Below, piece after piece: positions 1-29,997 of a stretch of DNA of 29,997 nucleotides. The notes beneath the pieces were generated by a model. The model had not been told where the DNA came from. It was given only the letters and a program-made list of their open reading frames with translations, and searched no databases. The stretch lies in UHGV virus genome UHGV-0207024; one strand, written 5' to 3'. Position 1 is the stretch's first letter, and the number at the start of each line of letters is the position of its first letter. Source of the stretch: a virus. The position numbers and the translations under genes are program-made.

Positions 1-504
1 GTGTGTAACTGCGCCGTGGAAACCGGTCAGTCCGCCTTTTTCGGGGGAATTATGTTTAGCGGAAAGCCGCTGGATTATCAGGATGAGCCGCTGACAAATA
101 ACGGCTTCTGGCCGGATCTGAACCTGAAAGACTTTCAGGCGCAGCGGTCACTGCCGCCAGATATTGACGCGGACACAATCAGCCAGGCGCTGCTTGCAGC
201 TGTAGCGGAGGTCAATGCGGAGCTGGAGAACGTGGAAGCCATCTGGAAAACAAAAGGATATGTGCTGGCTGCGGATGTGCCGGGCGTAAAAATGGGCGGG
301 CTTAACAGTCTGTGCGCCCAGTACATGAAAGCTGTATTTGCCAGGGCAAAAGCGGATCTGCTGGGGGAGTTTGCCACAATCGGGCGGCGTGATTCTCACC
401 CTGGACAGGAAAGCCAGGAAACCCGCGCCGGATTACTTGCTGAGGCTTCAGTGGTGATCCGCCGTATGAAAGGGCTGAAAAGGGCAACGGTGAAAAAAGT
501 ATGA
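1..504 (+). CDS. L: head completion/stabilisation protein (P2 gpL-like); start is GTG at position 1 or upstream of the window
   Basis: Translation resembles the P2 gpL pattern (FWPDLNLKDF ... AVAEVNAELENV versus P2 FFFPDIDPKRV ... MAETNAELYEY). It lies just downstream of M if the window is circular, and its stop overlaps the next gene (ATGA). Confidence 0.75.
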   Translation: MCNCAVETGQSAFFGGIMFSGKPLDYQDEPLTNNGFWPDLNLKDFQAQRSLPPDIDADTISQALLAAVAEVNAELENVEAIWKTKGYVLAADVPGVKMGGLNSLCAQYMKAVFARAKADLLGEFATIGRRDSHPGQESQETRAGLLAEASVVIRRMKGLKRATVKKV

Positions 505-1007
505 GCCAGACGCAGATTCAAAGCCTGACCGAATTTTTTAAAGAGAACGTCCCGCCCCGCGCGATGCAGTCGTTTGACAGCGTGCTGGATGAGATGAAGT
601 TCATTCCTGCGGCGAAGGATTACGGGTTGGGACAATACCGCCAGGCTGTGATCCGGTATGACGCGGTGCTGAGCTGGGGGCGTTTCCCTTATCGCCTGTG
701 TCCTCCACAGTTGCTTATGTCCTTACTGGCGGCGTGGCTGGATGATGCGGACAGGGAACTACTGGATGAAGTGGGGCTGAGTGAGGCGGAACCAGACTGG
801 GATGTATCGGTAGAGGATGAGGAAACGGCCACTGTTGTGCTGACCGTGCCGATGGTGGAAGAACTGGTGATCAGGCGGGACGATAACGGGGCTATTCCGT
901 GGCAGGGGGGGCGCTGGTCACTGGTTGAGCCTGAAATCTGGACGGCGCTGACTGCCAGCATTTACAGCGTGGATGAGGCTGGTGCGCCGGTAGGTGAGGG
1001 GGAATGA
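501..1007 (+). CDS. tail completion protein, P2 gpR-like (168 aa)
   Basis: Position after L and before the S-like gene; size close to gpR (155 aa); weak LxAWL motif similarity; ATGA overlap coupling with L. Confidence 0.5.
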   Translation: MSQTQIQSLTEFFKENVPPRAMQSFDSVLDEMKFIPAAKDYGLGQYRQAVIRYDAVLSWGRFPYRLCPPQLLMSLLAAWLDDADRELLDEVGLSEAEPDWDVSVEDEETATVVLTVPMVEELVIRRDDNGAIPWQGGRWSLVEPEIWTALTASIYSVDEAGAPVGEGE

Positions 1008-1711
1008 TTGTCGGTGGCGAGCTGAATAAAAAGCAGCTGGCCGAATTGCGCAAGGCGCTGGCCAGCATGGATCTGCCGCCGAGAAAACGGCAGCGTCTGA
1101 TCTGGCGTCTGGCCAAATATGGCGTGATCGCTGCGGCGAAACGGCATGTGCGCAATCAGGAATCACCGGATGGCCAGAAGTGGCCAGGGCGTAAGACAAA
1201 ACGCAAAGGGAAGATGCTGCGTAACCTGCCAAAGCTGCTGCATATCCGTGAAATGCCAGAAATTCAGGCTGTGCGGATCTATTTGCAGGGTGGTGGCTAC
1301 CGGAACGGGGAAACACCGGTTCCGGCCGGGACAGTCGGTTACGCACAGCAAAACGGAATGCGCGTGACCGTCAGTCGTCGCAATCAGTCACGGAAGGCAG
1401 AGGCCGGGAAAATGGCCACGCCAGCACAGGCCAAAAAACTGAGGGCGCTGGGCTATCGGGTACGTACTGGCAAGCGCTGGAAAAAGCCCACACTGGGTGA
1501 GATTACGCAGACGATGCCTTACAACCAGGCGGGGCTGTTGATTCGGAAGTTAAGCGGTAAAGCGGTGAAAACCAGCTGGACAGTGGAACTTCCTGCCCGT
1601 GTATTCCTGGGCATGAATGACGATGAATTTGATAAAGCGCTGGCGCGTCAGCTTCAGGCCATTGGCTTTGGCTGGAATGTTAAGGCGCAGGATATTAAGG
1701 GGAAAACATGA
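1004..1711 (+). CDS. phage virion morphogenesis / tail completion protein (P2 gpS / Mu gpG family)
   Basis: N-terminal motif (ELNKKQLAELRKAL ... KRQRLIWRLAKYG) is typical of the gpS/Mu-G virion morphogenesis family; translationally coupled to the neighbouring genes. Confidence 0.65.
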   Translation: MIVGGELNKKQLAELRKALASMDLPPRKRQRLIWRLAKYGVIAAAKRHVRNQESPDGQKWPGRKTKRKGKMLRNLPKLLHIREMPEIQAVRIYLQGGGYRNGETPVPAGTVGYAQQNGMRVTVSRRNQSRKAEAGKMATPAQAKKLRALGYRVRTGKRWKKPTLGEITQTMPYNQAGLLIRKLSGKAVKTSWTVELPARVFLGMNDDEFDKALARQLQAIGFGWNVKAQDIKGKT

Positions 1712-2835
1712 CCTGGCCAAATGTGACAGTGAACCAGGTAAATCAGCTTCTGGGCGAAACCAATGAAGTGGAACGCACGCTGCTGTTTATCGGTACGGGT
1801 ACCAAAAATGTAGGGAAAACGCTGGCGGTGAATGCCCAGAGTGATTTTGATTCACTGCTGGGTGAGGAGGCCAGCCCGCTGAAAAATGATGTTCTGGCTG
1901 CGCTGGCGAATGCTGGCCAGAACTGGTGGGGATTCATTCACGTCCTGTCAGCTGAAGCGGAGGAGGATGCCTGGGTTAAAGCGGTTCTGGCCGCGCAGGT
2001 GGTGTGCTCTGTGGAAGGCGTGGTGTTGTCTGATGATGTAGCCACTAAAGCGCAGGTAAATCAGGCCGTGACGTTACGATCCACGCTGATTTCAAAGTAT
2101 GGCCGCTGGGTGTGGTTCATTCTGGCCGCGCAGGGGATGCAGAACGAAGAAGCACAGGCGGATTATCTGGTACGCATGGCCACCCTTCAGGATGGTATTG
2201 CCGAAAAGTCAGTACAGCTGGTTCCGCGTCTGTGGGGGAATGAACCGGGTGTGCTGGCGGGGCGTCTGTGTAGCCGTGCAGTGACTATCGCAGACAGTCC
2301 AGCCCGTGTGAAAACCGGGGCGCTGCTGAACCTGGGCAGTGATGAAATGCCGGTTGATGGTGCCGGAGCTGTGCTGGAACTGGCCACACTTCAGGCACTG
2401 GAAGCGCAGCGCTTTAGTGTGCCGATGTGGTACCCGGACTATGACGGCTTTTATTGGTCTGACGGGCGCACGCTTGATGTGGAAGGGGGTGATTACCAGT
2501 CAATTGAAACCCTGCGTGTTGCCGATAAAGCGGCGCGTCGTGTACGTTTGCTGGCTATCAGCAAAATCGCAGATCGTTCACTGAACAGCACGCCGGGCAG
2601 CATTGCTGCACACCAGACGCTGTTTGCACGTCCGCTGCGTGAAATGTCTACTGCCGCCAGTATTAATGGGGTGTCATTTCCGGGGGAAGTGAAGCCGCCG
2701 CAGGATGGTGATGTGACCATTGTCTGGAAGAACAAAAAGACGGTGGATATTTATCTGGTGGTGCGCACCTGGGAAGTTCCGCTGCAAATCACTATCAGTC
2801 TGTTACTTGATGCCAGTCTGGAGGCCGCTGCATGA
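1708..2835 (+). CDS. putative tail sheath-like protein (375 aa), consistent with the DUF2586-type proteins of P2-like hybrid prophages
   Basis: Position between tail completion genes and the tube-like gene; size near P2 FI (396 aa); no obvious FI sequence identity by eye, so the functional call is positional. Confidence 0.45.
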   Translation: MTWPNVTVNQVNQLLGETNEVERTLLFIGTGTKNVGKTLAVNAQSDFDSLLGEEASPLKNDVLAALANAGQNWWGFIHVLSAEAEEDAWVKAVLAAQVVCSVEGVVLSDDVATKAQVNQAVTLRSTLISKYGRWVWFILAAQGMQNEEAQADYLVRMATLQDGIAEKSVQLVPRLWGNEPGVLAGRLCSRAVTIADSPARVKTGALLNLGSDEMPVDGAGAVLELATLQALEAQRFSVPMWYPDYDGFYWSDGRTLDVEGGDYQSIETLRVADKAARRVRLLAISKIADRSLNSTPGSIAAHQTLFARPLREMSTAASINGVSFPGEVKPPQDGDVTIVWKNKKTVDIYLVVRTWEVPLQITISLLLDASLEAAA

Positions 2836-3287
2836 GTAAACGTATTTCGGGCATGTCCTTTGATACCTACCTTGACGGTGATCTGATCCATATCGAGAAA
2901 ATCACACTTGATATCACGGATAACAGCACCGCCGCCCAGACCCGTGGTGTGCCGGATGGTCATGTTGATGGTGATGTGGCCGCAGAGGGAGAAATTGAGG
3001 TCAGTTCAAAGGTGCTGGGCGTACTGACGGCTAAAGCCCGCGCCGCAGGTTCGTGGCGTGGTATTGAACCACTGGATTTTCTTTTCTATGCCAAAGCGGG
3101 CAGCGAGGAAATGAAAGTGGAATCGTTCGGCAACAAACTCCAGCTAAGTAATCTTCTGGATATTGATCCGAAGGGTGGCGGTGTGGCGACGCACAAAATC
3201 AAATATTTTGTGACCAGCCCCAAGTTCGTGAGCATCAACGGCGTGCCGTATCTGGAAGCGGAAGCCACGGAAAATCTGATCGGATAA
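2832..3287 (+). CDS. putative tail tube protein (151 aa, DUF2597-like)
   Basis: Small acidic beta-rich protein directly after the sheath-like gene and upstream of the chaperone and tape measure; ATGA coupling. Confidence 0.45.
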   Translation: MSKRISGMSFDTYLDGDLIHIEKITLDITDNSTAAQTRGVPDGHVDGDVAAEGEIEVSSKVLGVLTAKARAAGSWRGIEPLDFLFYAKAGSEEMKVESFGNKLQLSNLLDIDPKGGGVATHKIKYFVTSPKFVSINGVPYLEAEATENLIG

Positions 3288-3297
3288 GGAAGCCATA

Positions 3298-3594
3298 ATG
3301 CAGGAGTATGAAAAGGGGTTCATTGCACTGGTAGTCATGGGGGCGGTGATTGCACTGGGTAAGTTGCTCAATAGTGACGAGCCGATCACTTTTCGCCTGG
3401 TTGCCGGGCGCGTTATTGTCGGCAGCGGGTTGACGTTGATCGCCGGGGTAGCGTTGTATTTTGTCCCGGATATCCATCCTCTGGCAATTGCCGGTTTTGG
3501 TTCTGCTTTGGGTATTCTCGGCCAGAACGTGGTTGAGGCATGGCTGCGCAAGCGTGGTTTTTCAGGGATTTTTGATAAAGGGGCAGGAAGATGA
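3298..3594 (+). CDS. holin (98 aa, three predicted TM helices)
   Basis: Three hydrophobic segments (FIALVVMGAVIALGKLL; FRLVAGRVIVGSGLTLIAGVALYFV; LAIAGFGSALGILG) and a charged C-terminus; sits immediately upstream of the endolysin with ATGA overlap. Confidence 0.7.
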   Translation: MQEYEKGFIALVVMGAVIALGKLLNSDEPITFRLVAGRVIVGSGLTLIAGVALYFVPDIHPLAIAGFGSALGILGQNVVEAWLRKRGFSGIFDKGAGR

Positions 3595-3932
3595 CACTAA
3601 GTGAAAAACAACAACGTTTTACGTCGATGATTGCGTTGTTAATTCAGTATGCAAATGCGAATGGCATGTGGTTGACGTTTGGTGAGGCGTACCGCACACC
3701 AGAACAGGCTGCGCTGAATGCGAAGAAAGGCAGCGGTATTTCAAACAGTCTGCACACCCTGCGTCTGGCTGTAGATTTTAATCTGTTCGTTAAAGGGGAA
3801 TACAAAACCCGTACTGAAGATTATCTGCCGCTGGGGGAATACTGGGAATCTTTAGGCGGCAGCTGGGGCGGGCGCTTCAAATCAAGGCCGGATGGAAATC
3901 ATTTCAGCCTGGAACATAACGGGGTGCGCTGA
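3591..3932 (+). CDS. endolysin, peptidase M15 (L-alanyl-D-glutamate / VanY-like zinc peptidase fold)
   Basis: Motifs SNSLHTLRLAVDF and DGNHFSLEH match the M15 family zinc ligand pattern (H..D ... H); lies between the holin and the spanins. Confidence 0.8.
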   Translation: MTLSEKQQRFTSMIALLIQYANANGMWLTFGEAYRTPEQAALNAKKGSGISNSLHTLRLAVDFNLFVKGEYKTRTEDYLPLGEYWESLGGSWGGRFKSRPDGNHFSLEHNGVR

Positions 3933-4270
3933 TGAGCAGCGGGCAGTGGCTGGTTTTGGTGGCGCTGGCGTTTGTCTGGGGCTGGCTGACTGCGGACTGG
4001 CGGCGCGACAGTCTGGAGCTGGCAATCAACACGGCTGCACAGGTGGCGGGCGATAAATCGCGGAAGGTGATGCAGGATGTTGCCAGTGATTCCGCCAGAA
4101 CGCTGGAAGATAAACTGGAGGCGTTGAAAGATGCGCAACCGCGCGAAATTCGCACTGAGGTGCTTAAGCCTGTTTTTACCAATGTTTGTCTGTCTGATGA
4201 GTTTGTCAGCATGTACAACAGCGCCGCAGCCAGTACCGAACGTGCGCTATCAGGAAAACCTGAAAACTAA
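3932..4270 (+). CDS. i-spanin (Rz-like, N-terminal TM, coiled-coil periplasmic domain)
   Basis: N-terminal TM (WLVLVALAFVWGWL) followed by a charged helical region; the o-spanin gene starts inside it in another frame. Confidence 0.65.
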   Translation: MSSGQWLVLVALAFVWGWLTADWRRDSLELAINTAAQVAGDKSRKVMQDVASDSARTLEDKLEALKDAQPREIRTEVLKPVFTNVCLSDEFVSMYNSAAASTERALSGKPEN

Positions 4271-4430
4271 ATGTGCCACGCAGCTACCACGCCTGAATGG
4301 TGCAACAGGTAAAGACGCAGCAGAATTACTGACGATTTATCTTGAAATTTATGGCCAGTGTGCCGCGCGTCATAATCAGTTAGTAGACGAAATTAATTTA
4401 AGAGAGAATATTAACTATGGAAAAAATTAA
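4131..4430 (+). CDS. o-spanin (Rz1-like outer-membrane lipoprotein), overlapped architecture
   Basis: Lipoprotein signal with lipobox LSAC (MRNRAKFALRCLSLFLPMFVCLMSLSAC), Pro-rich mature region, internal Cys residues; starts within the i-spanin gene in a different frame and extends beyond it. Confidence 0.7.
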   Translation: MRNRAKFALRCLSLFLPMFVCLMSLSACTTAPQPVPNVRYQENLKTKCATQLPRLNGATGKDAAELLTIYLEIYGQCAARHNQLVDEINLRENINYGKN

Positions 4431-4674
4431 ATTGTGTGTTTGTGGTGTGGATATTATTTTTGAACCGAACCAGACCGCATACAATAAATTTATTAATGAA
4501 ATGGCAATGGATAATAAAATTGCCCCTGCGCATAATTATCTGACGCGTATTGTTTCGACTGAAAGTAAAGATGCGCTTACGGAAGTATTGAAACGACCGG
4601 GCGCCGCACTTCAACTGGTCAGTAAAGTAAATGATATTTACGCGCCAGAACTGGAGATTGAAGTAAAAAACTGA
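4417..4674 (+). CDS. tail assembly chaperone (lambda G / P2 E-like), short form
   Basis: 85-aa acidic protein directly upstream of the tape measure; ends at a slippery A_AAA_AAC heptamer. Confidence 0.7.
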   Translation: MEKIKLCVCGVDIIFEPNQTAYNKFINEMAMDNKIAPAHNYLTRIVSTESKDALTEVLKRPGAALQLVSKVNDIYAPELEIEVKN

Positions 4675-4865
4675 CAAAGCGAGTCCATGACATTGAACGA
4701 AATGGACTCGAACAGTATTTAATTCTCCGTCGTCATTATTTGCCACATGGTCAGGATTCCATTGACGATATTGCCGCAGCTATATGGCTGGATAACCGTC
4801 ACTGGGAATATACGGGAATAGCCGTGGCTAATGGCGTGGCTAAAGCATTTAAAGGCACTGAATGA
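4417..4865 (+). CDS. tail assembly chaperone, -1 frameshift fusion product (G-T / E+E' analogue); slip at A_AAA_AAC 4665-4671
   Basis: The -1 frame (codons at positions divisible by 3) is open from 4662 to TGA 4863-4865, giving ...EIEVKK-LTKRVHDIERNGLEQYLILRRHYL...KAFKGTE, and ends overlapping the tape-measure ATG. This is the conserved frameshift arrangement upstream of tape measure genes. Confidence 0.55.
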
Positions 4866-6922
4866 AGCAATTAGATTTTACATTAAGCCTGATTGATAAA
4901 TTGTCCCGCCCGTTAAAACAGGCGCAGGGTAACGTAACGGGCTTTGCTGAAAAATCAAAAGCAGCCTTTATGCAGATTGGCGGCGGCGTTCTGGCGCTGG
5001 CGGGTACAGGTATGGCCATTAAAGGTGCGCTGATGCCCGCTATTGAAATGTATGACGCGCTGAATGATGCGGCTGCAAAAGGGATTGATGATTCTGCGCT
5101 TAAAACCGTTCAGCGTGATGCGCTGCGCTTCAGTACAACATACGGTGCCAGCTCGGTGGAGTTTGTTAAGTCCACTGAAAATATTAACGCTTCTATTGCC
5201 GGACTGACGGGCAATGAGCTGCCGAAAGTGACGAAAGTCGCCAATATTCTGGCTTTTGCGCTGAAGTCTACCGCTGCGGATACAGCGGAGTTTATGGGGC
5301 AAATGTTCGGTAACTTTTCCGCCGATGCCCAAAGGCTGGGCAAGGTTGAATTTGCTGAACAACTGGCCGGGAAAATGGTGTACATGCGTAAAACCTTTGG
5401 CACAGAAATGGCCACTATCAAAGACTTGATGGAAGGTGCACGCGGAGTCGGGACTAACTACGGCGTGGGGCTGGATGAACAGCTGGCCGTACTGGGTCAG
5501 TTAAACCGTACGCTGGGTACGGAGGCAAGTAGCGCTTACGAGGGCTTTATGACAGGCGCTATTGACGGGGCTAAAAAGTTGGGGCTGTCCTTCACTGACT
5601 CAACCGGAAAAATGCTCTCGATGCCGGAAATGCTGATCAAGTTGCAGGGCAAATACGGGAAAAGCCTGGAAGGGAACCTGAAAGCACAGGCGGAGCTTGA
5701 TGCGGCATTTGGTGACAGTTCGGCCGTGGTGAAGCACCTTTACGGCAATGTAGCGTTGCTACAGCGGAATATCACAGAGCTGGGAGGGGCGGACGGGCTG
5801 AAGCGTACCCAGGAAATGGCGCAGAAAATGGTTAAGCCGTGGGATCGCTTTGTCGAAATTCTTAAAGCCATCCAGACCGTCATTGGACTGACGCTGATCC
5901 CGGTGCTGTATCCGTTGCTCAACCGCCTGGCGGATATGGGACAGACTTTTGCCCGCTGGATGCAACTGTTTCCCAACATTGCGCGTGTCGTTGGTTATGC
6001 AGCAATGGCCTTACTCAGCTTTGCCGCAGTGGGGGCTGTGGCAAATATCGTGATGGGTGTATCCAAATTTATCATGATGGGTTTACGTGGGATCTGGTCT
6101 GCGCTGACGGCTGTTACGAAGGTATATACCGCCACGGTATGGCTGGCTAATATGGCCGTGATTGCCTGGAACGCTACGCTGAAATTTCTGCGCGGTGCGT
6201 TACTGGCGGTTCGTATGGCGGCAATGATGGCCGGGATTGGTATCAATCTGATGAGCTGGCCGATTCTGCTTGTGATTGGTGCGATAGCCCTGCTTGCTGC
6301 CGGTTGTTATCTGCTGATTAAGCACTGGGATACGGTTAAAGCCGCAGTGATGAATACTGAAGCATTTCAGGCATGTGCGGCGGTTGTTGAGTGGCTTGCC
6401 GGGGTGTTTGCTTCAGCCTGGCAGTTTATCAGTGAGGGCTGGAATAGTTTTATTTCATTGCTGACCAGCTTTTCTCCTTCTCTGGCATTAAGTGGGCTGG
6501 CCACGGGTATCGTGTCGCTGTTTGATAATGTCTGGCTATCCGTTAAAAACGGTTTTTTGAAATCATGGAGCTGGATTGTTAATAAGTTAAATAACATTCC
6601 GGGGGTTAATATTGAACTGGCGGGCGCAGCTTCATCCGATATCGCTAAAAATGAATCAGCAGTATTTCCGGTGCCGGAGTTGAAACAATCAACGAAAGCT
6701 GAAAGCGCACTTACTGCGCTGACGCAAAATAATTACGTATCAAACCAGCTTTCAACAGGGGGAGAATTAAAAGGCATTGAGAAGGGCGGGATTACAAAAA
6801 CAATCAACAGTAATACTAAGCCCGTAACTGACAATAGCAAGAAAATTGATACGGTAAACATTTTTCCGAAAGAAATGGTAACTCCTGGTCAGTTAATGGA
6901 GTTTCAGGAGCTGGGCGCATGA
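4862..6922 (+). CDS. tail tape measure protein (686 aa)
   Basis: Long alpha-helical N-terminal half, multiple hydrophobic/TM segments in the middle (residues about 370-480), Gly/Ala-rich; canonical position after the chaperone and its frameshift extension. Confidence 0.9.
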   Translation: MKQLDFTLSLIDKLSRPLKQAQGNVTGFAEKSKAAFMQIGGGVLALAGTGMAIKGALMPAIEMYDALNDAAAKGIDDSALKTVQRDALRFSTTYGASSVEFVKSTENINASIAGLTGNELPKVTKVANILAFALKSTAADTAEFMGQMFGNFSADAQRLGKVEFAEQLAGKMVYMRKTFGTEMATIKDLMEGARGVGTNYGVGLDEQLAVLGQLNRTLGTEASSAYEGFMTGAIDGAKKLGLSFTDSTGKMLSMPEMLIKLQGKYGKSLEGNLKAQAELDAAFGDSSAVVKHLYGNVALLQRNITELGGADGLKRTQEMAQKMVKPWDRFVEILKAIQTVIGLTLIPVLYPLLNRLADMGQTFARWMQLFPNIARVVGYAAMALLSFAAVGAVANIVMGVSKFIMMGLRGIWSALTAVTKVYTATVWLANMAVIAWNATLKFLRGALLAVRMAAMMAGIGINLMSWPILLVIGAIALLAAGCYLLIKHWDTVKAAVMNTEAFQACAAVVEWLAGVFASAWQFISEGWNSFISLLTSFSPSLALSGLATGIVSLFDNVWLSVKNGFLKSWSWIVNKLNNIPGVNIELAGAASSDIAKNESAVFPVPELKQSTKAESALTALTQNNYVSNQLSTGGELKGIEKGGITKTINSNTKPVTDNSKKIDTVNIFPKEMVTPGQLMEFQELGA

Positions 6923-7248
6923 GTGAGAGTCTCTATATTGATTTACTTATTCAGGATGGCGATTTTGTTCTGAATACTGGCCGCGAACCTGAATTGTGTA
7001 ATAACCGCCAAAGTATAGGGCAGGATATTATTCATTCTATTCTCGAAAGTGGGTTAGCAACGGAGCTAATTGCTGAACGTAGTCCAACCATGCGGGCTGA
7101 TATCTTTACCCGCATGGAATTACTGATTGAAGATGATGAACGTATTGTACCGGGAACGGTGGAAATCAGTGAGGAAAGTCAGAAGCGGTTATGGATCACT
7201 GCCAGCACATATGACTTTGGCGGAATTTCTGCGCAGGTGGATTTATGA
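6919..7248 (+). CDS. baseplate wedge protein, gp25 / P2 gpW-like (109 aa; DUF2590-like)
   Basis: Size and position (after tape measure, before J); motif RQSIGQDIIHSI resembles gpW SQSIGDILRT. Confidence 0.45.
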   Translation: MSESLYIDLLIQDGDFVLNTGREPELCNNRQSIGQDIIHSILESGLATELIAERSPTMRADIFTRMELLIEDDERIVPGTVEISEESQKRLWITASTYDFGGISAQVDL

Positions 7249-9009: not shown

Positions 9010-9018
9010 GGAGTAAGT

Positions 9019-20320: not shown

Positions 20321-20646
20321 CCATCAAAATTCACACGATAAAAATTGCGCCCAAGTACCTTAACGCAGTAGTCGCTGGCCAGAAAAAAGCAGAACTGCGT
20401 AAGAATGATCGTAACTATAAAACAGGTGATGTTCTTTCGCTGTGTGAGTGGAAGCACGGGAAATACACCGGGCGAGAGTGGGCGGCGGTTATCACTCATG
20501 TTTTGCCGGTGAATGAAATTATCGCTGGTGTAGACCGCTGGGTAGTTCTGTCCATTCGTTCAATGTCACCGCTTGAAGTGATGGAGTACATCATTTCTAA
20601 CGGCGTATCAGGGCTGCTTTTAAACGGGGTTGAATATGGCCATTAA
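20317..20646 (+). CDS. DUF3850/ASCH-like domain protein (109 aa)
   Basis: [40 protein letters not shown] matches the DUF3850 signature (H.LKI.P.YF..V..G.K.FE.R.NDR.F.VGD.L.L.E) as I recall it; ATGA coupling to the exonuclease and to Dam. Confidence 0.6.
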
Positions 20647-21502: not shown

Positions 21503-21711
21503 TGATGGAAATCCTGATCGGCGTTTATGCCTTATTTGCCTGTATTACCTTTGTTTTTCTCTTATGGGATGAACAGCAGGATGACTTCAGTCATGATGTT
21601 GATGACTTTTTGCTGATCACTTTAAGTGCAGTTTTCTGGCTACCACTGGTCGCGGCCGTGCTGGTGGCATTCCTGATTGATTTCTGGAAAAAATGGGTTA
21701 ATCGTGGCTGA
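21499..21711 (+). CDS. small two-TM membrane protein (70 aa)
   Basis: Two hydrophobic helices (ILIGVYALFACITFVFLLW; LITLSAVFWLPLVAAVLVAFLIDFW); ATGA overlap with the Dam stop; stops immediately before the replication gene. Confidence 0.45.
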   Translation: MMMEILIGVYALFACITFVFLLWDEQQDDFSHDVDDFLLITLSAVFWLPLVAAVLVAFLIDFWKKWVNRG

Positions 21712-21712
21712 T

Positions 21713-23734
21713 ATGCTGGATATTGGCCAACATCACGCCGTCGATGCCTGGCGGCGTGAAACCTTTGCGCCGGGAACGCCAGCAGATGCCACCATCACAG
21801 AGCGCCGTTTATGGGCTGTTAATCCAGAGGATTATGAATGGCGCTCCCAGTACCTGCATGAGATACCCGACTGGTTAGCCGGGTATTTTGGCAACCGTTA
21901 TGAAAAGCTGCTGGCTGGTCGTGACGGGCGTCGCCGTGCCAATACATTTCTGCGTCAGACTATCGGCGGGAATGTATTGCCACGTCTGCGCAAAGTGGCC
22001 GCACGTTACAAGCTGGCCGCTGATGCACTTGATCTTCCTTTTGGTAAGTCGCTGGAGCGACTGCCATCACTTGACCGTCCAGATCTTAAAAAACTGTCTG
22101 GACAGATATCCGGCTGGATCTCCCAGTCACTGTATGACTTCACCGATCAGTTTATGGGCAGCACTGAAGATGCCGCAGAGCTGCGCCGCCGTACGCTGGA
22201 GTCTTATCGCCATTTGTGCGCCTGTTCACTGATGCTGAATAATCAGCCTCCGTACTGGGCGGAACATGAAGCCAGTGACGGCCAACTGGAAACACGCAAG
22301 GCTGAATCCGGCATCCTGCGCATGATGGCGCCAGAGTGGTGGTATCAGCGCCTTAAGCGTGCGCGTGATGTACAGCGTGAGCATCTGGCTATAGCTGTGG
22401 GGCAGGTACAGAAAGCAGCCAGTGCTTATGTGTCCCGTAAAACTCTGGGCGAATGGATAGAACAGAAAAAGCGCAACGCTGAGTTTTTTAAAAAATTCGA
22501 CCTGATAAATGAGCATGGGGATCGCGTAGCGCTGGCTGATATGGTTCATGGTAGCGTGGCTAATCCAGCGATACGTCGCTGTGAATTGATGGTTCGTATG
22601 CGCGGATTTGAAGATATTGCCAATGACGAACGGCTGGCCGGTGAGTTTTATACCATCACCGCACCATCACGTTTCCATGCTGTGCACAGTAAAGGCGGCT
22701 TTGTTTCTCAATGGAATGGATACACGCCGCAGGATACCCAGCGCTATCTATGTGGTGTATGGGCAAAAGCCCGCGCAGCGCTCTCCCGCGCGGGTATCCA
22801 TGTCTTTGGGTTTCGGGTTGTAGAGCCTCACCATGATGGGACACCCCACTGGCATATGTTGCTTTTTATGCGCCCACAGGATGTGGACACGGTACGCGAT
22901 ATTCTTTGCTATCACGCACGTATCACTGATTCTGAAGAACTACAAACCCCCCACGCGCTTAAGGCGCGTTTTCATGTTGAGCCTATCGATCCTAAAAAGG
23001 GGTCGGCCACTGGCTATATCGCTAAATACATATCAAAGAATATTGATGGCTTTTCGCTCGATGGCGAAAAAGATGATGAGACCGGGGAAAACCTGCGCGA
23101 TATGGCTAAAGCCGTTTCAGCATGGGCATCACGCTGGCGCATTAGACAGTTCCAGCAGATAGGCGGTGCGCCGGTGACGGTATGGCGTGAGCTGCGCCGT
23201 CTGCCAGGTGATGGACAGATTTTACCAACTGAAGATATGGATAACGTGCGTTTTGCAGCAGACGTGGGCGACTGGCGAGCTTATACCGAGTGCCAGGGGG
23301 GTGCGTTTGTTATGCGTAAGGATCTGACCGTCCGCCTGGCGTATGAGGTAACTGAGCAGGGTAACGAATACGCAGAGGACGTGCAGCGCGTACAGGGCAT
23401 CTACTCGCCACATATTCCAGATTCTGAGGTATGTACGCGTCTGGTGAAGTGGCAGAAGGTTACGAAGTTGGCCGAAGCGTCAGCGGAGGCGGGTTTTGAC
23501 CTTGACCTTAAACACCCTTGGAGTTCTGTCAATAACTGTACTGAGGGGGGAACCCGCAGACGGTTAAAACTGGAGTTACGCAGTCGTGGTTTTGATGGTT
23601 CTGATGAGGAAATCACCATACTGACGCGGGGGAGTGGTTTAAGGTTTGGCCATACAGCCCTGATTTATCGTAATGGCAGGTTGCAGGAAGCGCGAAAAGA
23701 GCCAGTCCAGGAGTTATGGCCGGGATGGGTATAG
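21713..23734 (+). CDS. A: rolling-circle replication initiation protein (P2/186 gpA family, HUH endonuclease)
   Basis: HUH motif region GTPHWHMLLF and catalytic Tyr region GYIAKYISKNIDG; about 674 aa from ATG 21713 (the ORF is open from TTG 21677). Confidence 0.85.
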   Translation: MLDIGQHHAVDAWRRETFAPGTPADATITERRLWAVNPEDYEWRSQYLHEIPDWLAGYFGNRYEKLLAGRDGRRRANTFLRQTIGGNVLPRLRKVAARYKLAADALDLPFGKSLERLPSLDRPDLKKLSGQISGWISQSLYDFTDQFMGSTEDAAELRRRTLESYRHLCACSLMLNNQPPYWAEHEASDGQLETRKAESGILRMMAPEWWYQRLKRARDVQREHLAIAVGQVQKAASAYVSRKTLGEWIEQKKRNAEFFKKFDLINEHGDRVALADMVHGSVANPAIRRCELMVRMRGFEDIANDERLAGEFYTITAPSRFHAVHSKGGFVSQWNGYTPQDTQRYLCGVWAKARAALSRAGIHVFGFRVVEPHHDGTPHWHMLLFMRPQDVDTVRDILCYHARITDSEELQTPHALKARFHVEPIDPKKGSATGYIAKYISKNIDGFSLDGEKDDETGENLRDMAKAVSAWASRWRIRQFQQIGGAPVTVWRELRRLPGDGQILPTEDMDNVRFAADVGDWRAYTECQGGAFVMRKDLTVRLAYEVTEQGNEYAEDVQRVQGIYSPHIPDSEVCTRLVKWQKVTKLAEASAEAGFDLDLKHPWSSVNNCTEGGTRRRLKLELRSRGFDGSDEEITILTRGSGLRFGHTALIYRNGRLQEARKEPVQELWPGWV

Positions 23735-23854: not shown

Positions 23855-24058
23855 ATGGATCTTTTGGAAGCGTCGGCACAGCTGGAGCGCATTGAGTTAT
23901 TGGCCAAAATTGCCCATGTTTACGAAAGTGACCAGAGAGAGAAAACGATCGCTTTGGCCTGGATTGGTGAAATCGCGGGAGAAATGCGGGAAATGGTCAG
24001 GAAAGAAGTGAAAAGCCCCCAGTCAGGGGGCTTAAGCGGCGGGTGTCGCTTTCAGTAG
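23855..24058 (+). CDS. small SOS-regulated protein, candidate Tum-like antirepressor (67 aa)
   Basis: Strong RBS (GGGGGctaaATG); LexA box in its promoter; located after gene A, as tum is in phage 186; no sequence motif support for function. Confidence 0.4.
   Translation: MDLLEASAQLERIELLAKIAHVYESDQREKTIALAWIGEIAGEMREMVRKEVKSPQSGGLSGGCRFQ
24014..24032 (-). terminator. terminator of the leftward P-Q-ogr transcript
   Basis: Minus strand: AGCCCCC-tgact-GGGGGCT followed by TTTTCACTTCTTT, immediately after the ogr-like stop. Confidence 0.5.
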
Positions 24059-24301
24059 GTCTAATGCCATCTGACGCTGATCGGGTGAAAGTGCACCCAG
24101 TATTTTTTGCACCATTGCATCACCCGTTTTAGCGCTGGGGCTGAGAGTGTGGGAGAACGTCAGATTCATGACAAACGTATGACCACACTCCACATCTGAA
24201 CAGGCGCAGTAAATATCGGCAATCTGTCGGTGTTTCCGGTTTGTTTTACGAATAACAGCCTTTGAGCCGCATTCCGGGCATTCGATTTTCAGAACTCGCA
24301 T
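24032..24301 (-). CDS. ogr: Ogr/Delta (186 B) family zinc-finger late transcription activator (about 89 aa from MRVLK)
   Basis: CPECGS-x19-CACSDVEC zinc-finger spacing is typical of Ogr/Delta/B; start ATG at 24301 with GGAG 8 nt upstream. The ORF is open to 24355, but that start would overlap the Q stop region. Confidence 0.7.
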   Translation of the reverse strand: MRVLKIECPECGSKAVIRKTNRKHRQIADIYCACSDVECGHTFVMNLTFSHTLSPSAKTGDAMVQKILGALSPDQRQMALDLLKATPAA

Positions 24302-24351
24302 ATTCCATGCTCCAGCTGTTAAATAATGCCTGGATTTTAGCCTTTTTCGTC

Positions 24352-25413
24352 TCATACCGCATCCTTATCTGTTGATTCTGCGTAACTTAAATCAAAGTTA
24401 AGGTGCAGTCTTTCCGGTATTTCGGGATCGTTGTTAACGGCCAGCATGAACCGGCGCTGAATGGGCGCAACTTCGCTTTTCTTGTAAATACGTTCAGCCT
24501 TTTCAACGTCGCCCAGTCCGGCAGTGTTCTGCGGAACGATTCCGGCAAGGCCAGCAGGAAAGCGGTGTGCATTCAGAATGTCCTGGGCGCTGATATTCTT
24601 GACGTTTGCAAACTCATCCTTTGCGGAAATATCACCCATTTCAATGAACTTGATAGCGTCACCGTCGCCACCAGGAATATTTACCAGAATGGTGGAGAAA
24701 TTGCCGATCCCTTTACTGTCGCGCAGCTGCTGTTCAATCTCTTCTTCCATTTCGTCCGTCATGCTGGGGTCGCGGGTGTAAAGAATACCGCCTGTGTGCG
24801 CACCGTTATGGTAATAGCGGCGCCGGAAAATGACTGCTTCACTGTTGAGTAACGCAGAATGCACACCGCCGATGTAATCCGGTAGCCCGTAGATGTGCTG
24901 TTGCGGGTCGTACATCTTAATGAAAATAATATCTTCCTGCGGCCATACCTCCGGTTCCCCTTCCTGTAATACCACGTAATCGCCAGGCTGATCCGTGGCA
25001 TTGTCCCTGACCTTCCGGCGACGGATATACAGTCCGGGGAGGGGTTCAAGTCCGATCACGTCTCCCCAGCCATTGCGGATTTTACCAATTGCGATATCAC
25101 CAAACGTTATATAGTCGAATGCTGCCGCCTCAAGCTGGTCATGAATCAGGCCACCTCCTTTGTAGTCGGAGATAATCATATTCTTGCGGGCGTGGATGAT
25201 GCCGCCATGCTGCCCGTTAAGGTTAATCAGCTGTGCCAGCGCCAGCCGGTCAATCGGTTGTGTGAAATGATCGGCGGCGTTGTCGTACCAGATATCACGG
25301 TAGTCTGTGCCGGTAGTCAGTACCGGTTCAGGCTTGCCGAATGTGATAATGCTCATTTTTTTGGCCTTATCGCCGCGCTGGTCGCGCTTAATGAAGCGTT
25401 TCTTTTTACTCAT
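24352..25413 (-). CDS. Q: portal protein (P2 gpQ family)
   Basis: 353 aa (P2 Q 344 aa); downstream of and translationally coupled (ATGA) to terminase large subunit P, in the leftward P-Q operon. Confidence 0.9.
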   Translation of the reverse strand: MSKKKRFIKRDQRGDKAKKMSIITFGKPEPVLTTGTDYRDIWYDNAADHFTQPIDRLALAQLINLNGQHGGIIHARKNMIISDYKGGGLIHDQLEAAAFDYITFGDIAIGKIRNGWGDVIGLEPLPGLYIRRRKVRDNATDQPGDYVVLQEGEPEVWPQEDIIFIKMYDPQQHIYGLPDYIGGVHSALLNSEAVIFRRRYYHNGAHTGGILYTRDPSMTDEMEEEIEQQLRDSKGIGNFSTILVNIPGGDGDAIKFIEMGDISAKDEFANVKNISAQDILNAHRFPAGLAGIVPQNTAGLGDVEKAERIYKKSEVAPIQRRFMLAVNNDPEIPERLHLNFDLSYAESTDKDAV

Positions 25414-27197
25414 GCTGCCTTTTTCCTTACGCCCCAGCGGGACTGCGGTTTGTTTTCATAGTTAAGAGGTTCGTTATGCAGCGCGTGGGTAATTGCCCAG
25501 AATGCTTCCGCATGTCCTGTATCCTGACTGCGGTCAGCGACAAATGTCATCGCGTTACCGCTTTGGGTTGTTGTACGGCGCACGGCCATGAAGCTGGCCG
25601 GGATCTCCTTAAGGTTTTTGTCCCATTCGATACGCTGGCTTTCCACCACGTCCGCTGCTTTCAGTACCAGCTTATTTTTGGTGTTCAGGTCGTAACGAAT
25701 TGCGACGGCAACGCGCATGGCAAAGTGCTGGATGTTGTCAAAAACACCCTGGCCAATGCCGGTCACGTCAACGCCCAGATAAGAAAAGTTGTACTGGCTG
25801 AACAGTTTTTCTATCTGCTTTGCTTGGTATCGGAAGTTCATGCCCTTCCAGTAAATAACTCTCAGAACGCGGAATTTCTCCACGGCGAGCAGTGGCGGAG
25901 CGATAATCACAAAACAGGACAAATCCCCGCTGCGTGCCGGGTCAAAACCTCCCCATACCGGGCGATCACCGAATGGCCGCGCCGCATCGGGGTTGTGATC
26001 CTGCCAGGTGTCCACCTCCACGCCGCAGGCTTCCAGGTCGGAAAAGCTGAAAACGGAATCCTTGCTGTCAACGAACACGCACATGTAGAGCATGTTGAAT
26101 GTGGCGGTGTTGTAGCGGTTGCGCAGTTTCTCTATGTTGGCCAGGTTGAAGCCGCCCGCAATGGCATCCTCCATCGTAATGACATAGCGCCACTGTCCAT
26201 CCGGGCAGAGTCGCCCGCCATCACGCATTTCGTCAAAGGACGGGAACTTAATGGCCGCACGTTTTTTGCTGCCCTGTTTCCATTCATCGCCTGTCCAGAA
26301 CGGGTACGCCTGGTGTGTTTTTGCTGACGGTGTTGAAAAATAGGTGGTACGCCACTTGTCATGTGTGGCCATTGCGCTGGCCACTTCGTTAAGTCTGGCG
26401 AAGTTTGGCACCCAAAAATATTCATCGCAGTACAGGTGGCCGCTGTAGGACTGTGCAGTGTTTTTGTTGGTGGACAGAAAGCGCAGTTCTGCGCCGTTAC
26501 TTAAACGGATCGGGTTGCCGGTCAGCGTGATACCGAAATACTGCTCTGCAATGTTCACGATGTAAGACCGGAACACTTCAGCCTGAGCCTTTGATGCCGA
26601 CAGAAATATTTGCGGATCGCCGGTCATCACCGCGTTTTCAAACGCTTCAAACGCAAAATACCAGGTCGCACCGATCTGACGGCTTTTCAGTATGTTCCTG
26701 ACTTGCTGGCCAATGTTATTGCGCAGGTGTTTCTGATATTCAAAAAGATGTTCATCAGCCCATGCGTCAAAGTCCTCCTGCGTCAGCGATGAGATATCAT
26801 TTTTCTTGTATTTGCGTTTCCCTTTCCTGCTTTCGTCGTGAGCAGCGTATTCTCCTGTTTGTTCGCTGTTCTGATTTCCCCCCTGGCTGTTGGCCATCTT
26901 CTCTTTATGCTTATTACTTTGCGCACGCAGTTTCGTGGCATGTGCGATAAGCATGTCCATTTCTTTCAGGTCGAGATCGGTTTTGTTGTCGCGGCTGGCC
27001 AGCAGCTGGTAACGGCGTTCAATTGCTTCCTCTGTACTTTCAAAACTGAGCAAATCCGCCCAGCTATATTTCTCCGCCCAGTAGTAAACGATCCGCGCAT
27101 TCGGCAGATTTAATTCAGATGCAATTTCCTTTGGCGTATAGCGGCGCAGATAAAGTGCGCGGACAACGCCTTTTAATTCTTCAGAGTATTTAGCCAT
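25410..27197 (-). CDS. P: terminase large (ATPase) subunit (P2 gpP family)
   Basis: 595 aa (P2 P 590 aa); N-terminal HTH-like MAKYSEELKGVVRALYLRRYTPKEIASELN; central ATPase and nuclease regions; divergent from O. Confidence 0.95.
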   Translation of the reverse strand: MAKYSEELKGVVRALYLRRYTPKEIASELNLPNARIVYYWAEKYSWADLLSFESTEEAIERRYQLLASRDNKTDLDLKEMDMLIAHATKLRAQSNKHKEKMANSQGGNQNSEQTGEYAAHDESRKGKRKYKKNDISSLTQEDFDAWADEHLFEYQKHLRNNIGQQVRNILKSRQIGATWYFAFEAFENAVMTGDPQIFLSASKAQAEVFRSYIVNIAEQYFGITLTGNPIRLSNGAELRFLSTNKNTAQSYSGHLYCDEYFWVPNFARLNEVASAMATHDKWRTTYFSTPSAKTHQAYPFWTGDEWKQGSKKRAAIKFPSFDEMRDGGRLCPDGQWRYVITMEDAIAGGFNLANIEKLRNRYNTATFNMLYMCVFVDSKDSVFSFSDLEACGVEVDTWQDHNPDAARPFGDRPVWGGFDPARSGDLSCFVIIAPPLLAVEKFRVLRVIYWKGMNFRYQAKQIEKLFSQYNFSYLGVDVTGIGQGVFDNIQHFAMRVAVAIRYDLNTKNKLVLKAADVVESQRIEWDKNLKEIPASFMAVRRTTTQSGNAMTFVADRSQDTGHAEAFWAITHALHNEPLNYENKPQSRWGVRKKAA

Positions 27198-27245
27198 GCG
27201 GATAATTATGCCGTGGCTGTAATGAAAAAACGGTGGTGTTAATTC

Positions 27246-27281
27246 GTGTCTGTTCGGTAAAGCGTTATAACCGAACTGAAC
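27246..27281. promoter_or_regulatory. dyad element in the divergent late-promoter region: candidate activator (Ogr-like) binding site
   Basis: Inverted repeat cTGTTCGGT-aaagcgttata-ACCGAACtG (7 bp perfect arms, 9/8 bp extended) centred about 66 bp from the P start codon; no canonical TGT-N12-ACA found. Confidence 0.4.
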
Positions 27282-27358
27282 AGAATAAAGCGTAATGCGG
27301 TGGCGGTATTTATTGGCAATAATTGATTTGCAGCGTCAGGGAGTGGAACAGGGGGGAT

Positions 27359-28162
27359 ATGTCACATTTAAAAACTGACTGGCTGTGTGTTGCTACCGAA
27401 GGTGATACCGTTGACGGCAGAGTAATTAAACGGCAGTGGATTATAGATATGGGTGAAACCTATGACTATAACCACTGGGTTGCTTTAATCTGGCCAGAAC
27501 ATGAGGACGATTGCGGTAATTTCGGTGAGGTGCTGGAAGCCACCTGGAGTGATGGTGATGATGGTCTGGCGCGGTTATATGTCAGCCTTTGCCCGAATAT
27601 GCGCCTGATTTTCGCCAACCATGAAGATCAGCTTTTATTTTTCTCCATTGAGCCGGAAGAGAACTGGCGCGGTAGCGGACGGACTTACCTGAAAGGGTTG
27701 GCGGTAACAGACACGCCAGCCAGTATTGGCACCACACGGCTGCGCTTTAGTAGTCGGCGTAAAAAATTATCTGAACAGGGCTATTACAGCTGTGTAATTT
27801 CCCGTGACGGAAAAATAAAACAGGAAGGAAAAATGAAGAACTGGCAAAAATTGTTTGGTATCAAGCCGAAGTTTGAAGATGAAACCACGCAGGATAATCC
27901 TGCGCCGGATGATGATAAGTTACAGGCGCTTGCTAATGTGGTAAACGATCTGGAAGCGCGTGTCGCAAAAATTGAAAGTCAGATTAATGAAGTTCAGGAT
28001 GATGTTGATACCATTTCCGAAGTGGTTGACACGGAAGAGTTTGCCGCTATTCGTGATAATGCGAAAGATATCGTTAAACGTTTTAACGATTTGGGTAGTA
28101 AATCAACCCGTTCACCTGGGCGTAAAATTTCGGAAAAAGCCGGGAAGTTTAATTTTCTGTAA
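27359..28162 (+). CDS. O: capsid scaffolding protein (P2 gpO family)
   Basis: N-terminal region WLCVATEGDTVDGRVIKRQWIIDMGETYD parallels P2 O FRIGVEGDTCDGRVISAQDIQEMAETFD; ATG 27359 is preferred over TTG 27323. Confidence 0.85.
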   Translation: MSHLKTDWLCVATEGDTVDGRVIKRQWIIDMGETYDYNHWVALIWPEHEDDCGNFGEVLEATWSDGDDGLARLYVSLCPNMRLIFANHEDQLLFFSIEPEENWRGSGRTYLKGLAVTDTPASIGTTRLRFSSRRKKLSEQGYYSCVISRDGKIKQEGKMKNWQKLFGIKPKFEDETTQDNPAPDDDKLQALANVVNDLEARVAKIESQINEVQDDVDTISEVVDTEEFAAIRDNAKDIVKRFNDLGSKSTRSPGRKISEKAGKFNFL

Positions 28163-28224
28163 TTTTCTTTAACGCTGATTAATACAGGTTAATTTTTATT
28201 ATCGCTTAATTGCGAGGGAGTTTT

Positions 28225-29247
28225 ATGCACCTTAATAACCGTGCGCGGGATTTACTGGATAAATATTCGACCGGGATGGCACAGCAGTTTGGTGCGCGTG
28301 ATACCAGTCGTTATTTTTCCCTGAATGATCCGCAGGAAAACGCGCTGCGCCTTGCGTTGCTGGAGTCCGTGGAGTTTTTGAGCATGATCACCTGTCTGGA
28401 TGTTGACCAGCTGAGTGGTCAGGTGATCTCTGTTGGTTCCTCTGTACTGCATACCGGCCGCAGCGAAAACGGCCGCTTTGTCCGTCAGGTGGGCGTGGAC
28501 GGTAACGATTATTCGCTGGTTGAAACAGACAGCTGCGCCGCGCTGCGCTGGGATCTGCTTTCGGTTTGGGCGAACGCAGGTAAGGAAGAAAACGAGTTTT
28601 ACAACCTGGTACAGGCATTCACCACGCAGGCTTTTGCACTGGATATGCTGCGCATTGGCTTTAATGGTAAGAGCCGCGCAAAAACCACTGACCCAGAAGC
28701 TAACCCGAACGGTGAGGATGTGAACGTTGGCTGGCACGAGCGTATGAAAACGCTGCTGGACGGCAATCAGATTATGACCGATCCAGTGGTGCTCGATGAG
28801 GCCGGGGATTACAAGTCACTGGATGCAATGGCGTCCGATCTTATTAACACCAAAATTCCGTCACAGTTCCGCAATGACCCGCGTCTTGTCGTTCTGGTTG
28901 GTGCCGATCTGGTCGCTGCTGAACAGTACCGGTTGTATCAGGCAGCAGATCGTCCGACTGAAAAAATCGCTGCGCAGATGCTGGGAAGCACCATCGCTGG
29001 CCGTCAGGCCATTATCCCGCCGTTTATGCCGGGTAAACGCATGGTGGTGACGCCGCTTTCTAACCTGCACATCTACACCCAGCGCAATACCCGTATGCGT
29101 AAGGCGGAGTTTGTTGAAGATCGTAAGCAGTTCGAAAACAAATACCTGCGCAACGAAGGTTACGCCATTGAAGTGCCGGAACTGTATGCGGCTATTGATG
29201 AATCGGCGGTGACCATCGGCGCAGTATCTGAACCAGCGGAGGGCTGA
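28225..29247 (+). CDS. N: major capsid protein (P2 gpN family)
   Basis: Motifs GFNGKSRAKTTDPEANPNGEDVNVGW, GDYKSLDAM and DPRLVVLVG parallel P2 N (GFNGVKRAETSD...NP...GW; GDYASLDAL; DPDLVVIVG); ATG 28225 with GAGGGAG RBS. Confidence 0.9.
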   Translation: MHLNNRARDLLDKYSTGMAQQFGARDTSRYFSLNDPQENALRLALLESVEFLSMITCLDVDQLSGQVISVGSSVLHTGRSENGRFVRQVGVDGNDYSLVETDSCAALRWDLLSVWANAGKEENEFYNLVQAFTTQAFALDMLRIGFNGKSRAKTTDPEANPNGEDVNVGWHERMKTLLDGNQIMTDPVVLDEAGDYKSLDAMASDLINTKIPSQFRNDPRLVVLVGADLVAAEQYRLYQAADRPTEKIAAQMLGSTIAGRQAIIPPFMPGKRMVVTPLSNLHIYTQRNTRMRKAEFVEDRKQFENKYLRNEGYAIEVPELYAAIDESAVTIGAVSEPAEG

Positions 29248-29250
29248 TAA

Positions 29251-29949
29251 ATGGCACTTTCTCCCGCACAGCGTCATAGCCAGCGCATTCTGGCCGAACA
29301 GCAACTGAAAAAGCGCCGGGCGATTGAAACGCTGGAAAGTCTGCATGTGCAAATCCAGATCCTGAATCAGGATATCGCGTTTTTACGTGGACTCCCGACG
29401 ATTGCAGATCGTGTGACATACAAGCGCGATGAGCTGATTCCACGCTGGAAGCCGACTGTTGATGAATATCTGACAGGTGAAAGCGTGTATGAAAACCCGG
29501 TCTTTGCCTGGTTCGTTGTGTGGATGTTCGATGTTGGTGAGCTTGATGAGGCGTTGCGCCTGGCTGATATCGCGATTGAGCAGCAACAGCCAACGCCGGA
29601 GAACATTAAGAGCCGATTTCCGGTATTTGTCGCTGATACGGTGATGGAGTGGGCGGAAAGCACGGCAGCAGTGGGGGAAAGTGTCGAGCCATATTTTTCA
29701 CAGGTTTTTGAGAAAGTGACTCAGCGCTGGCGGCTTCATGAAGAGATTACCGCCAAGTGGTTTAAATTTGCCGGATTGATGCTGTTACGCGACGACAACG
29801 GCCAGCCACGCGCTACGGCAGTGGAAGATGTTGACACGTTGTTAAAGGCCAATGAACTGCTGGCCTGTGCTGAAAATCTCTATAAGCGCATAGGTGTAAC
29901 TACTATGCGAGCACAGATTGCGGCACGCATTCGCAGTCTGACGAAATAA
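29251..29949 (+). CDS. M: terminase small (endonuclease) subunit (P2 gpM family)
   Basis: 232 aa, after N as in P2; followed by 48 nt and, across the window boundary, the L gene. Confidence 0.8.
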   Translation: MALSPAQRHSQRILAEQQLKKRRAIETLESLHVQIQILNQDIAFLRGLPTIADRVTYKRDELIPRWKPTVDEYLTGESVYENPVFAWFVVWMFDVGELDEALRLADIAIEQQQPTPENIKSRFPVFVADTVMEWAESTAAVGESVEPYFSQVFEKVTQRWRLHEEITAKWFKFAGLMLLRDDNGQPRATAVEDVDTLLKANELLACAENLYKRIGVTTMRAQIAARIRSLTK

Positions 29950-29997
29950 AAACGACTACCGCAAGCCAGGCGGACGCGGTGGAGGGCAGAACACCTT

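Follow-up and report, generated by a model that had tools for sequence, protein, structure and literature searches.

The stretch of DNA analyzed here, the UHGV virus genome UHGV-0207024, comprises 29,997 nucleotides (nt), and this whole stretch is referred to below as the window. It opens on an open reading frame (ORF) containing the head-completion gene L and closes shortly after the small terminase gene M, with a contractile-tail module, a putative cohesive-end site (cos), a tRNA-derived phage attachment site (attP), an integrase gene (int) and an immunity and early region in between (Table 1). The P2-type head block is present in order as PF04860, PF03237/PF17289, PF05929, PF05125, PF05944, and PF05926, with the portal and the large terminase encoded on one strand and the scaffold (GPO), capsid, M, and L on the other. 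Ogr/Delta (PF04606), GPA (PF05840), CI (PF07022/PF16452), and PF06892 are also present, and a divergent early operon lies beside CI. The gene set is complete and colinear with those of the plaque-forming ESSI2_ev phages of 29-31 kb. No host genes were found, and each ORF tested matched phage families, in agreement with an earlier note on this sequence that had seen no host genes in the 30 kb. Very probably, the window is the full genome of a temperate P2-family phage of Citrobacter koseri, present as a single unit of 29,997 bp and written out as the circle formed on excision.

The join of base 29997 to base 1 is real and seamless, and five independent tests agree on this closure, which the earlier note had proposed. 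An artificial junction of 1200 nt, made of the last 600 and the first 600 nt, aligns ungapped and in a single piece to integrated prophages of Escherichia coli, in whose chromosomes PGAP labels gpM followed by a head-completion protein; the same junction also aligns to ESSI-2-like phage records. The exact 40-mer spanning bases 29997 and 1, which cannot occur in the linear window, was found in eight public contigs (seven from IMG/VR and one from GTDB). Contigs encoding an identical M protein read from M through 48 nt to a GTG codon, with 99.9-100% identity across the join. The covariance model R1 of the RNA element described below matches the two ends of the window as truncated halves, model positions 1-44 on 29954-29997 and 44-99 on 1-57, which abut exactly. 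The test we regard as decisive among the five is the prophage in WVTY01000002.1 (GCA_009832525.1), tiled from two fetched loci: a distance of exactly 29,997 bp separates its two attachment (att) cores, and from core to core it equals the window rotated at 15610, with 0 differences at any base. The core-to-core distance in ACBXUK010000002.1, computed from the match ranges, is also 29,997 bp. The claim that the window is a complete phage genome with an intact attP, and not an integrated prophage, was thus supported, the window being exactly one genome unit in the attP configuration. The earlier placement of the end of M (PF05944, 29251-29949) at 29949 and of the L-containing ORF (PF05926, phrog_71) at base 1 also held, as did the order of M then L in P2-like phages, which we saw in P2 itself. 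Calling ORFs across the junction placed M and L in the same reading frame and gave a single spanning ORF, of 31 residues, among those of at least 30 residues.

The attachment site consists of a 48-nt core, within which the earlier note had correctly recognized positions 15613-15657 as a 3' fragment of tRNA-Ile2 with phage genes on both sides. The tRNA matched by these 45 nt (anticodon CAU) is carried by 5421 of the 5426 complete E. coli genomes, where PGAP calls it tRNA-Ile, and ARAGORN finds no tRNA in the window, as expected for a 45-nt fragment. Identity between the window and lysogen contigs ends exactly at 15610 and 15657, so that the block shared by phage and host is 48 nt. The same 48-mer stands at both ends of the prophage, where one copy follows the 5' half of the host tRNA and the other precedes the host terminator. 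In the window, the core is flanked by phage DNA on both sides, with a baseplate gene and the gene for a 165-residue cargo protein to the left and the integrase gene to the right. Because a single core carries the int arm and the cargo arm on its two sides, 15610-15657 is the recombinant attP for the host locus described next, which is ileX.

Phage DNA identical or nearly identical to the window is found integrated, with attL and attR joined to host DNA, in WVTY01000002.1, ACBXUK010000002.1, and CP052059.1, and the integrase gene adjoins host DNA in six chromosomal contigs. On the cargo side, the lysogens show the host genes tsaD-rpsU-dnaG-rpoD-mug and a complete tRNA (CAU), followed by the cargo arm; on the int side, the int arm and the core lead into the host (ileX) terminator, beyond which lie a DUF1889 gene and the gene for a dhaR-like regulator. 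We take the tRNA downstream of tsaD-rpsU-dnaG-rpoD-mug to be ileX from its position in E. coli K-12. Inspection of the host ileX locus, which the earlier note had named as a place to look, found it occupied by the identical prophage in the C. koseri assembly WVTY01000002.1. The host flanks of the lysogens are 98.9-99.5% identical to the chromosome CP052059.1, whose species name, Citrobacter koseri SCAID-URN1-2019, is taken from PMC10269928. The lysogens of the identical phage are not E. coli, because their host flanks are only ~86-88% identical to that species. The best matches retrieved from complete E. coli genomes are divergent relatives, with ~80% identity across the M-L junction and ~85-88% partial identity over 12000-20000, and in E. 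coli the interval from mntS to mntR harbors relatives that carry other integrases.

Direct repeats of 19 nt at 15684-15702 (TAAGTTACAGATAAATCAG, between the core and int) and at 14819-14837 (TAACTTACAGATAAATAAG, beyond the cargo gene) flank the att core. They may serve as arm-type sites of the integrase or as accessory-factor sites, and insertion may have placed the cargo gene between the core and an old arm. Related prophages at ileX and mntR encode the identical cargo protein at the end next to the attachment site, and the contig collection indexes it in 100 blocks; a similarly placed gene for a 165-residue protein adjoins ileY in a prophage remnant of E. coli GF131. The cargo gene may be a moron or superinfection-related gene. 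As a separate observation, the metagenome scaffold ERZ28648913_153 (ENA; locus L031) shows at 11231-16543 the int side, then a second, degraded element and a second copy of the 48-nt core. This second element (a portal fragment, WapI, a truncated integrase, and AbiTii) differs from the phage, and the elements are arrayed at ileX.

A putative cos core lies uncut inside the window, between the last baseplate gene and attP. The ESSI-2 record carries a direct repeat of 15 nt at its termini, GCGGGTGCGGTGTAG, whose reverse complement equals the first 15 nt of this core exactly, and 12 of the 16 nt agree with the cohesive end annotated for Aeromonas phage phiO18P. On the phiO18P map, the cohesive end likewise lies between the last baseplate gene and a tRNA-derived attP and int, in the orientation seen in the window. 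Motifs flanking cos are conserved as well, including CCAGACCGCGCCAG about 45 nt downstream. No P2-type cos motif was found anywhere in the window, and a literature search on the ESSI-2 cos site or a P2 M-L terminator returned nothing usable. The Logan contig SRR30568706_66 ends at 14658, but the Logan contig ends near cos (14571, 14631, and 14658) are not coincident and were not used as proof of termini. Headful (pac) packaging does not fit a genome with a cos homologue and a P2-type terminase. By analogy to the annotated relatives, cos is internal and closed in the window, and the virion DNA should have unique ends at cos and should not be circularly permuted, because this would be a cos phage whose cos site is closed inside the window. 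The expression "circularly permuted" used in the earlier note is therefore apt for the written record and not for the virion DNA.

The M-L spacer of ~95 nt hardly varies among relatives that share ~65-79% identity in their M genes, and in the window it is recovered when 29950-29997 is joined to 1-57; intact copies occur in relatives at loci L010 (20557-20657) and L021 (14586-14686, minus strand). We used 43 distinct spacer sequences from IMG/VR relatives for the alignment, the fold, and the pair counts. RNAalifold returned three stacked helices and a variable apical hairpin, followed by a U-tract, with compensatory changes in 9 of 15 pairs. By pair counting, 99.1% of the cells are paired, compared with 34-55% in slid-register controls. 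On four of five measures the observed value was reached by none of 500 shuffles; on the remaining one, further pair types, it was reached by 31 of 500. Judging from its G-U pairs, the structure belongs to the mRNA-sense strand. Among the segments left unpaired, GACUACCGCAAGCC (the 5' single strand), GGAGG, and GUGGAA are almost invariant, and nearly all of the 43 sequences show the P1 stem (GCGGRC/GYCCGC) followed by T4-T7, the hairpin being ~68 nt long with three helices and conserved internal loops. The structure emerged only from the comparison of relatives; folded as a single sequence, the spacer did not exceed its shuffles (z = 0). A simple terminator scan did not call the spacer element, and Rfam gave nothing relevant on the window at the gathering threshold or on the intact spacer of a relative at E-values up to 10.

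We tentatively propose that the sequence at the wrap point, where the window was cut, belongs to a conserved RNA structure (~85 nt) carried by the late mRNA, for which we found no description. It might act as a regulated terminator, a processing site, or a 3'-UTR-derived small RNA setting the ratio of head to neck, tail, and lysis gene products across a broad group of Peduoviridae. Placed where the head genes give way to those for the neck, tail, and lysis, it would most likely be an elaborate intrinsic terminator or attenuator, or else a processing site. In the AT-rich relatives L124 and L132 the element lies farther upstream of L, and an extra gene of ~65 residues lies between M and the spacer element in ESSI2_ev015 (L048, 761-958, labelled 'L33') and ESSI2_ev239 (L051, 693-884). 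From its greater distance to L in the AT-rich relatives, the spacer element appears to stay with the end of M and not with the start of L.

The structure also changes the reading of the start of L. The earlier note had placed this start at GTG 1 and had used a Shine-Dalgarno sequence, GGAGGG at 29980-29985 with correct spacing, as an argument for closure. The motif is actually located at 29981-29986, 11 nt before the GTG, and is an invariant internal loop of the RNA structure and no demonstrated ribosome-binding site, so that the argument was wrong although the closure itself is right. Most likely, L starts at ATG 52 and encodes 150 residues. The phrog_71 match begins at residue 18, which corresponds to ATG 52. 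L comprises 150-153 residues in PGAP annotations (150 in E. coli EC101) and in those of ESSI-2, Yersinia 324, and phiO18P, and the N-termini of L in the latter three begin with MF, like the product of ATG 52 in the window. ESSI-2 has an in-frame TAA directly after the equivalent of the GTG. Among the 43 relatives, the position of GTG 1 falls in the sequence-variable hairpin tip, while conservation is seen in a GGGGG/GGAG motif that precedes the ATG by 4-8 nt; in the window GGGGG precedes ATG 52 at 43-47.

GTG 1 is the first in-frame start codon after the TAA of M, with which L shares its reading frame. We estimate at roughly 0.3% the chance that a random cut would land on the first start codon of an ORF while being crossed only by a 31-residue ORF. 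According to its documentation (PMC7000223), Cenote-Taker rotates contigs that are circular so that they open at a "non-intragenic start codon". We infer that the wrap point was chosen by software, of the kind used when rotating a contig already judged to be circular. A second cut 34 nt away, in IMGVR_UViG_2585427953_000007, was considered and rejected, as the contig is continuous there (locus L064).

The excised circular form would arise by integrase-mediated recombination between attL and attR, which would release a circle from the ileX locus. The released circle would carry the 48-nt core with the int arm on one side and the cargo gene, cos, and tail module on the other, with the cohesive-end site joined. 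P2-like phages replicate as monomeric circles after excision or infection, and the terminase then cuts the circles at cos. Such a circle would be the form present after excision or infection, and would also be what assemblers give for virion DNA with annealed cohesive ends. The Logan k=31 contig SRR8652995_13 (29,425 nt) crosses attP at 100% identity without a lysogen-type branch. As this unbranched k=31 contig shows, at least one public read set contains excised DNA of exactly this sequence. By contrast, the contigs of SRR30568706 and ERR9752387 have their first base at 15628, which is k-1 into the core and the point at which the graph of a lysogen would branch.

A replicative circle, annealed virion DNA, a unit of a tandem lysogen, and a computationally circularized prophage all have the same sequence, and circularity judged from sequence cannot separate true excision from assembly effects at att repeats. 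Of the proposal in the earlier note, a circular replicative or virion-derived genome or one unit of a tandem polylysogen, the genome unit is supported, and the type of molecule is undecidable by sequence. Several points weigh against the excised circle. The physical topology of the sequenced molecules is something that we infer, whereas the closure, unit length, att relationships, gene content, and cos homology are shown. The read set SRR8652995, whose contig spans attP, may derive from a virion preparation or a culture. The ends of this contig, 14631 and 15204, and those of sibling contigs, 14571 and 14658, are near cos but not coincident, and thus weak evidence for physical ends. Finally, the assignment of cos is drawn by analogy from one annotated cos (phiO18P) and one GenBank terminal repeat.

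Among the other origins of such a record, computational circularization of an integrated prophage deserves most attention. In a de Bruijn graph at k<48 the 48-bp att cores would collapse, and the resulting loop with overlapping ends would be flagged as circular, trimmed, and rotated, although no excision had taken place. The integrated copy does agree with the window at every base and is bounded by 48-nt direct repeats, the trimming of one of which gives exactly 29,997 bp; lysogen contigs in Logan (k=31) have their start k-1 bases within the core, and the wrap point suggests automated handling. We nevertheless consider this origin unlikely, as common assemblers finish at k>=55, where a 48-nt repeat stays uncollapsed, and as the independent k=31 contig passes attP unbranched, so that real attP molecules of this sequence exist in at least one read set. 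The window might also be one repeat unit of a tandem di- or polylysogen at ileX, in which the internal junction has the sequence of attP. Sequence cannot tell such a unit apart from a circle, and arrays at ileX do occur, as in ERZ28648913_153, where a different remnant and a second core follow int. A cut from a chromosome would, however, need the exact unit length and a chance start on the start codon of an ORF, and none of the chromosomal contigs retrieved runs from int and the core into the cargo arm of this phage, since the six large ones all pass from int through the core into host DNA; a tandem array is therefore very unlikely.

Stable maintenance as an extrachromosomal phage-plasmid, instead of a transient replicative form, would equally account for a circular sequence with an intact attP. 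The 30,037-bp Salmonella enterica "plasmid" CP074296.1 (PLSDB) matches the tRNA-derived stretch 15579-15657 of the attP region, and its length is exactly that of Salmonella phage SW3, so P2-like circles may get deposited as plasmids. Against such maintenance, genes for partition, plasmid replication, or a protelomerase were not found in the window, the integrase and attP are intact, the identical phage is integrated in several genomes, and the plasmid collection holds no close match, which makes a phage-plasmid highly improbable. The idea that the window is a linear virion record with cos-cut termini, in which the M-L boundary would be cos, draws on the location of the cut in a 95-nt non-coding stretch that adjoins the small-terminase gene and is far more conserved than M. 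This idea is barely credible, since the cos homologue lies instead at 14638-14653, syntenic with phiO18P and matching the ESSI-2 repeat, and the conserved spacer forms an RNA-sense element whose paired positions show compensatory changes and G-U pairing; the motif search for a P2-type cos, as mentioned above, was negative. The excised circular genome is thus the reading that we prefer.

The assignments of the tail and early regions draw on Pfam annotations of contigs identical or nearly identical to the window, together with scans of its own ORFs. The DUF2586 protein is labelled tail sheath in the ESSI-2 and phiO18P records.

Table 1. Coordinates of genes and predicted elements in the 29,997-nt window.
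Feature	Position	Strand	Basis or remark
Predicted RNA element, 5' half	29954-29997	+	Contains the GGAGGG internal loop; R1 match truncated at its 3' end
Predicted RNA element, 3' half: apical hairpin, 3' arms of P3, P2, and P1, T-run, then Shine-Dalgarno and ATG of L	1-57	+	R1 match truncated at its 5' end
ORF with head-completion gene L (head-tail adaptor Ad1)	1-504	+	PF05926, residues 31-165; phrog_71, residues 18-166 to profile 4-157
Neck, contractile tail, lysis, and baseplate module	501-14450	+	Pfam of contigs 99.9-100% identical to the window; Pfam/PHROG scans of window ORFs; includes GpR-like tail completion protein, DUF2586 protein, and HP1_Orf24-family protein (tail tube), with sheath and tube labels from annotated records
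Holin	3298-3594	+	
M15 endolysin	3591-3932	+	
Rz-like spanin	3932-4270	+	
Tape measure	4862-6922	+	
Baseplate_J	7245-8429	+	
Tail fibre, with assembly protein	9019-10959	+	
567-residue baseplate/spike protein	12747-14450	+	
Putative cos core, CTACACCGCACCCGCC, uncut	14638-14653	+	Within the 520-nt non-coding stretch 14451-14970
165-residue cargo gene between cos and attP	14971-15468	minus	phrog_13160; N-terminal zinc ribbon (weak Pfam matches)
attP core, 48 nt	15610-15657	minus	3' 45 nt of tRNA-Ile2 (CAU), 15613-15657, anticodon loop to CCA, plus 3 nt
Tyrosine integrase	15731-16792	minus	PF24624, PF00589
Immunity and early region	16792-23734	mixed	Pfam of identical contigs; helix-turn-helix match; also Fil, DUF2732, RNase_T exonuclease, DUF3850, Dam methylase
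CI repressor	16792-17379	minus	
Helix-turn-helix regulator	17514-17735		
CII-like	17766-18269		
GPA replication endonuclease	21713-23734		Ends the early operon
P2-type head and packaging module	24032-29949	mixed	Pfam
Ogr/Delta	24032-24355	minus	PF04606
Portal	24352-25413	minus	PF04860
Large terminase	25410-27197	minus	PF03237/PF17289
GPO scaffold (O)	27359-28162		PF05929
P2 capsid (N)	28225-29247		PF05125
Small terminase M	29251-29949		PF05944

The closest phages at the nucleotide level are Escherichia phage ESSI2_ev015, with 86% identity over 84% of a 25-kb query, and its relatives: ESSI2_ev015, ev129, and ev040 together match at 85-86% over 75-84% of this query, and Cronobacter phage ESSI-2 at 76% over 39%. 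The usual line for a phage species is 95% nucleotide identity. With matches below this line, the phage would belong to no species among the phage records in the collection searched. The gene order and content of ESSI2_ev015, ev129, and ev040 (Peduoviridae, Quadragintavirus and relatives) and of ESSI-2 (Seongnamvirus) are the same throughout as in the window, including the P2-type head module and the DUF2586/DUF2590-type tail, in genomes of 28.8-30.9 kb. ESSI-2 shares the cos 15-mer with the window, and these phages have the M-L spacer element in common with it. The integrase and att site of ESSI-2 differ, as it carries a tmRNA-like 3' fragment (read by eye), whereas the phage of the window uses ileX. 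M of these relatives is only ~65-79% identical to that of the window, ESSI2_ev015 has the additional small gene 'L33' after M, unlike the window, and the hosts found for the phage of the window are C. koseri.

The map of phiO18P (Bielevirus) is the same as that of the window, running through baseplate, cos, tRNA-derived attP, int and CI on the minus strand, replication, portal and large terminase on the minus strand, O, N, M, L, and tail, with the flanks of its cohesive end conserved in addition to the 12 shared nt. It is nevertheless distant, with an L protein of 47% identity, a tRNA-Leu-like attP, and an M-L spacer of 172 nt that is not detected by R1, and its record runs from cos to cos, while the window was opened between M and L. 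P2 and 186 resemble the window in the Q-P and O-N-M-L head module, the Ogr/Delta activator, the GPA replication endonuclease, and cos packaging. Their M-L spacer, also of ~95 nt, holds a long GC-rich hairpin that is analogous but of a different sequence, to which R1 gives no match; their tail module differs from that of the window, as does the P2 cos motif, which the window lacks. In P2, cos adjoins Q and not attP.

The phage can be placed as an ESSI-2-like peduovirus (Peduoviridae), a temperate myophage, and the excised circular state is ordinary for P2-like phages. From the sequence, both the integration site and the packaging site are closed in the window as written. The record is accordingly to be annotated as a complete, probably viable ESSI-2-like phage of C. 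koseri and not as a prophage fragment, and the natural linear map of the phage starts at cos and not at L. Cutting a circular record hides the features over the cut, and here it split an RNA element, which was misread as a ribosome-binding site and a start codon.

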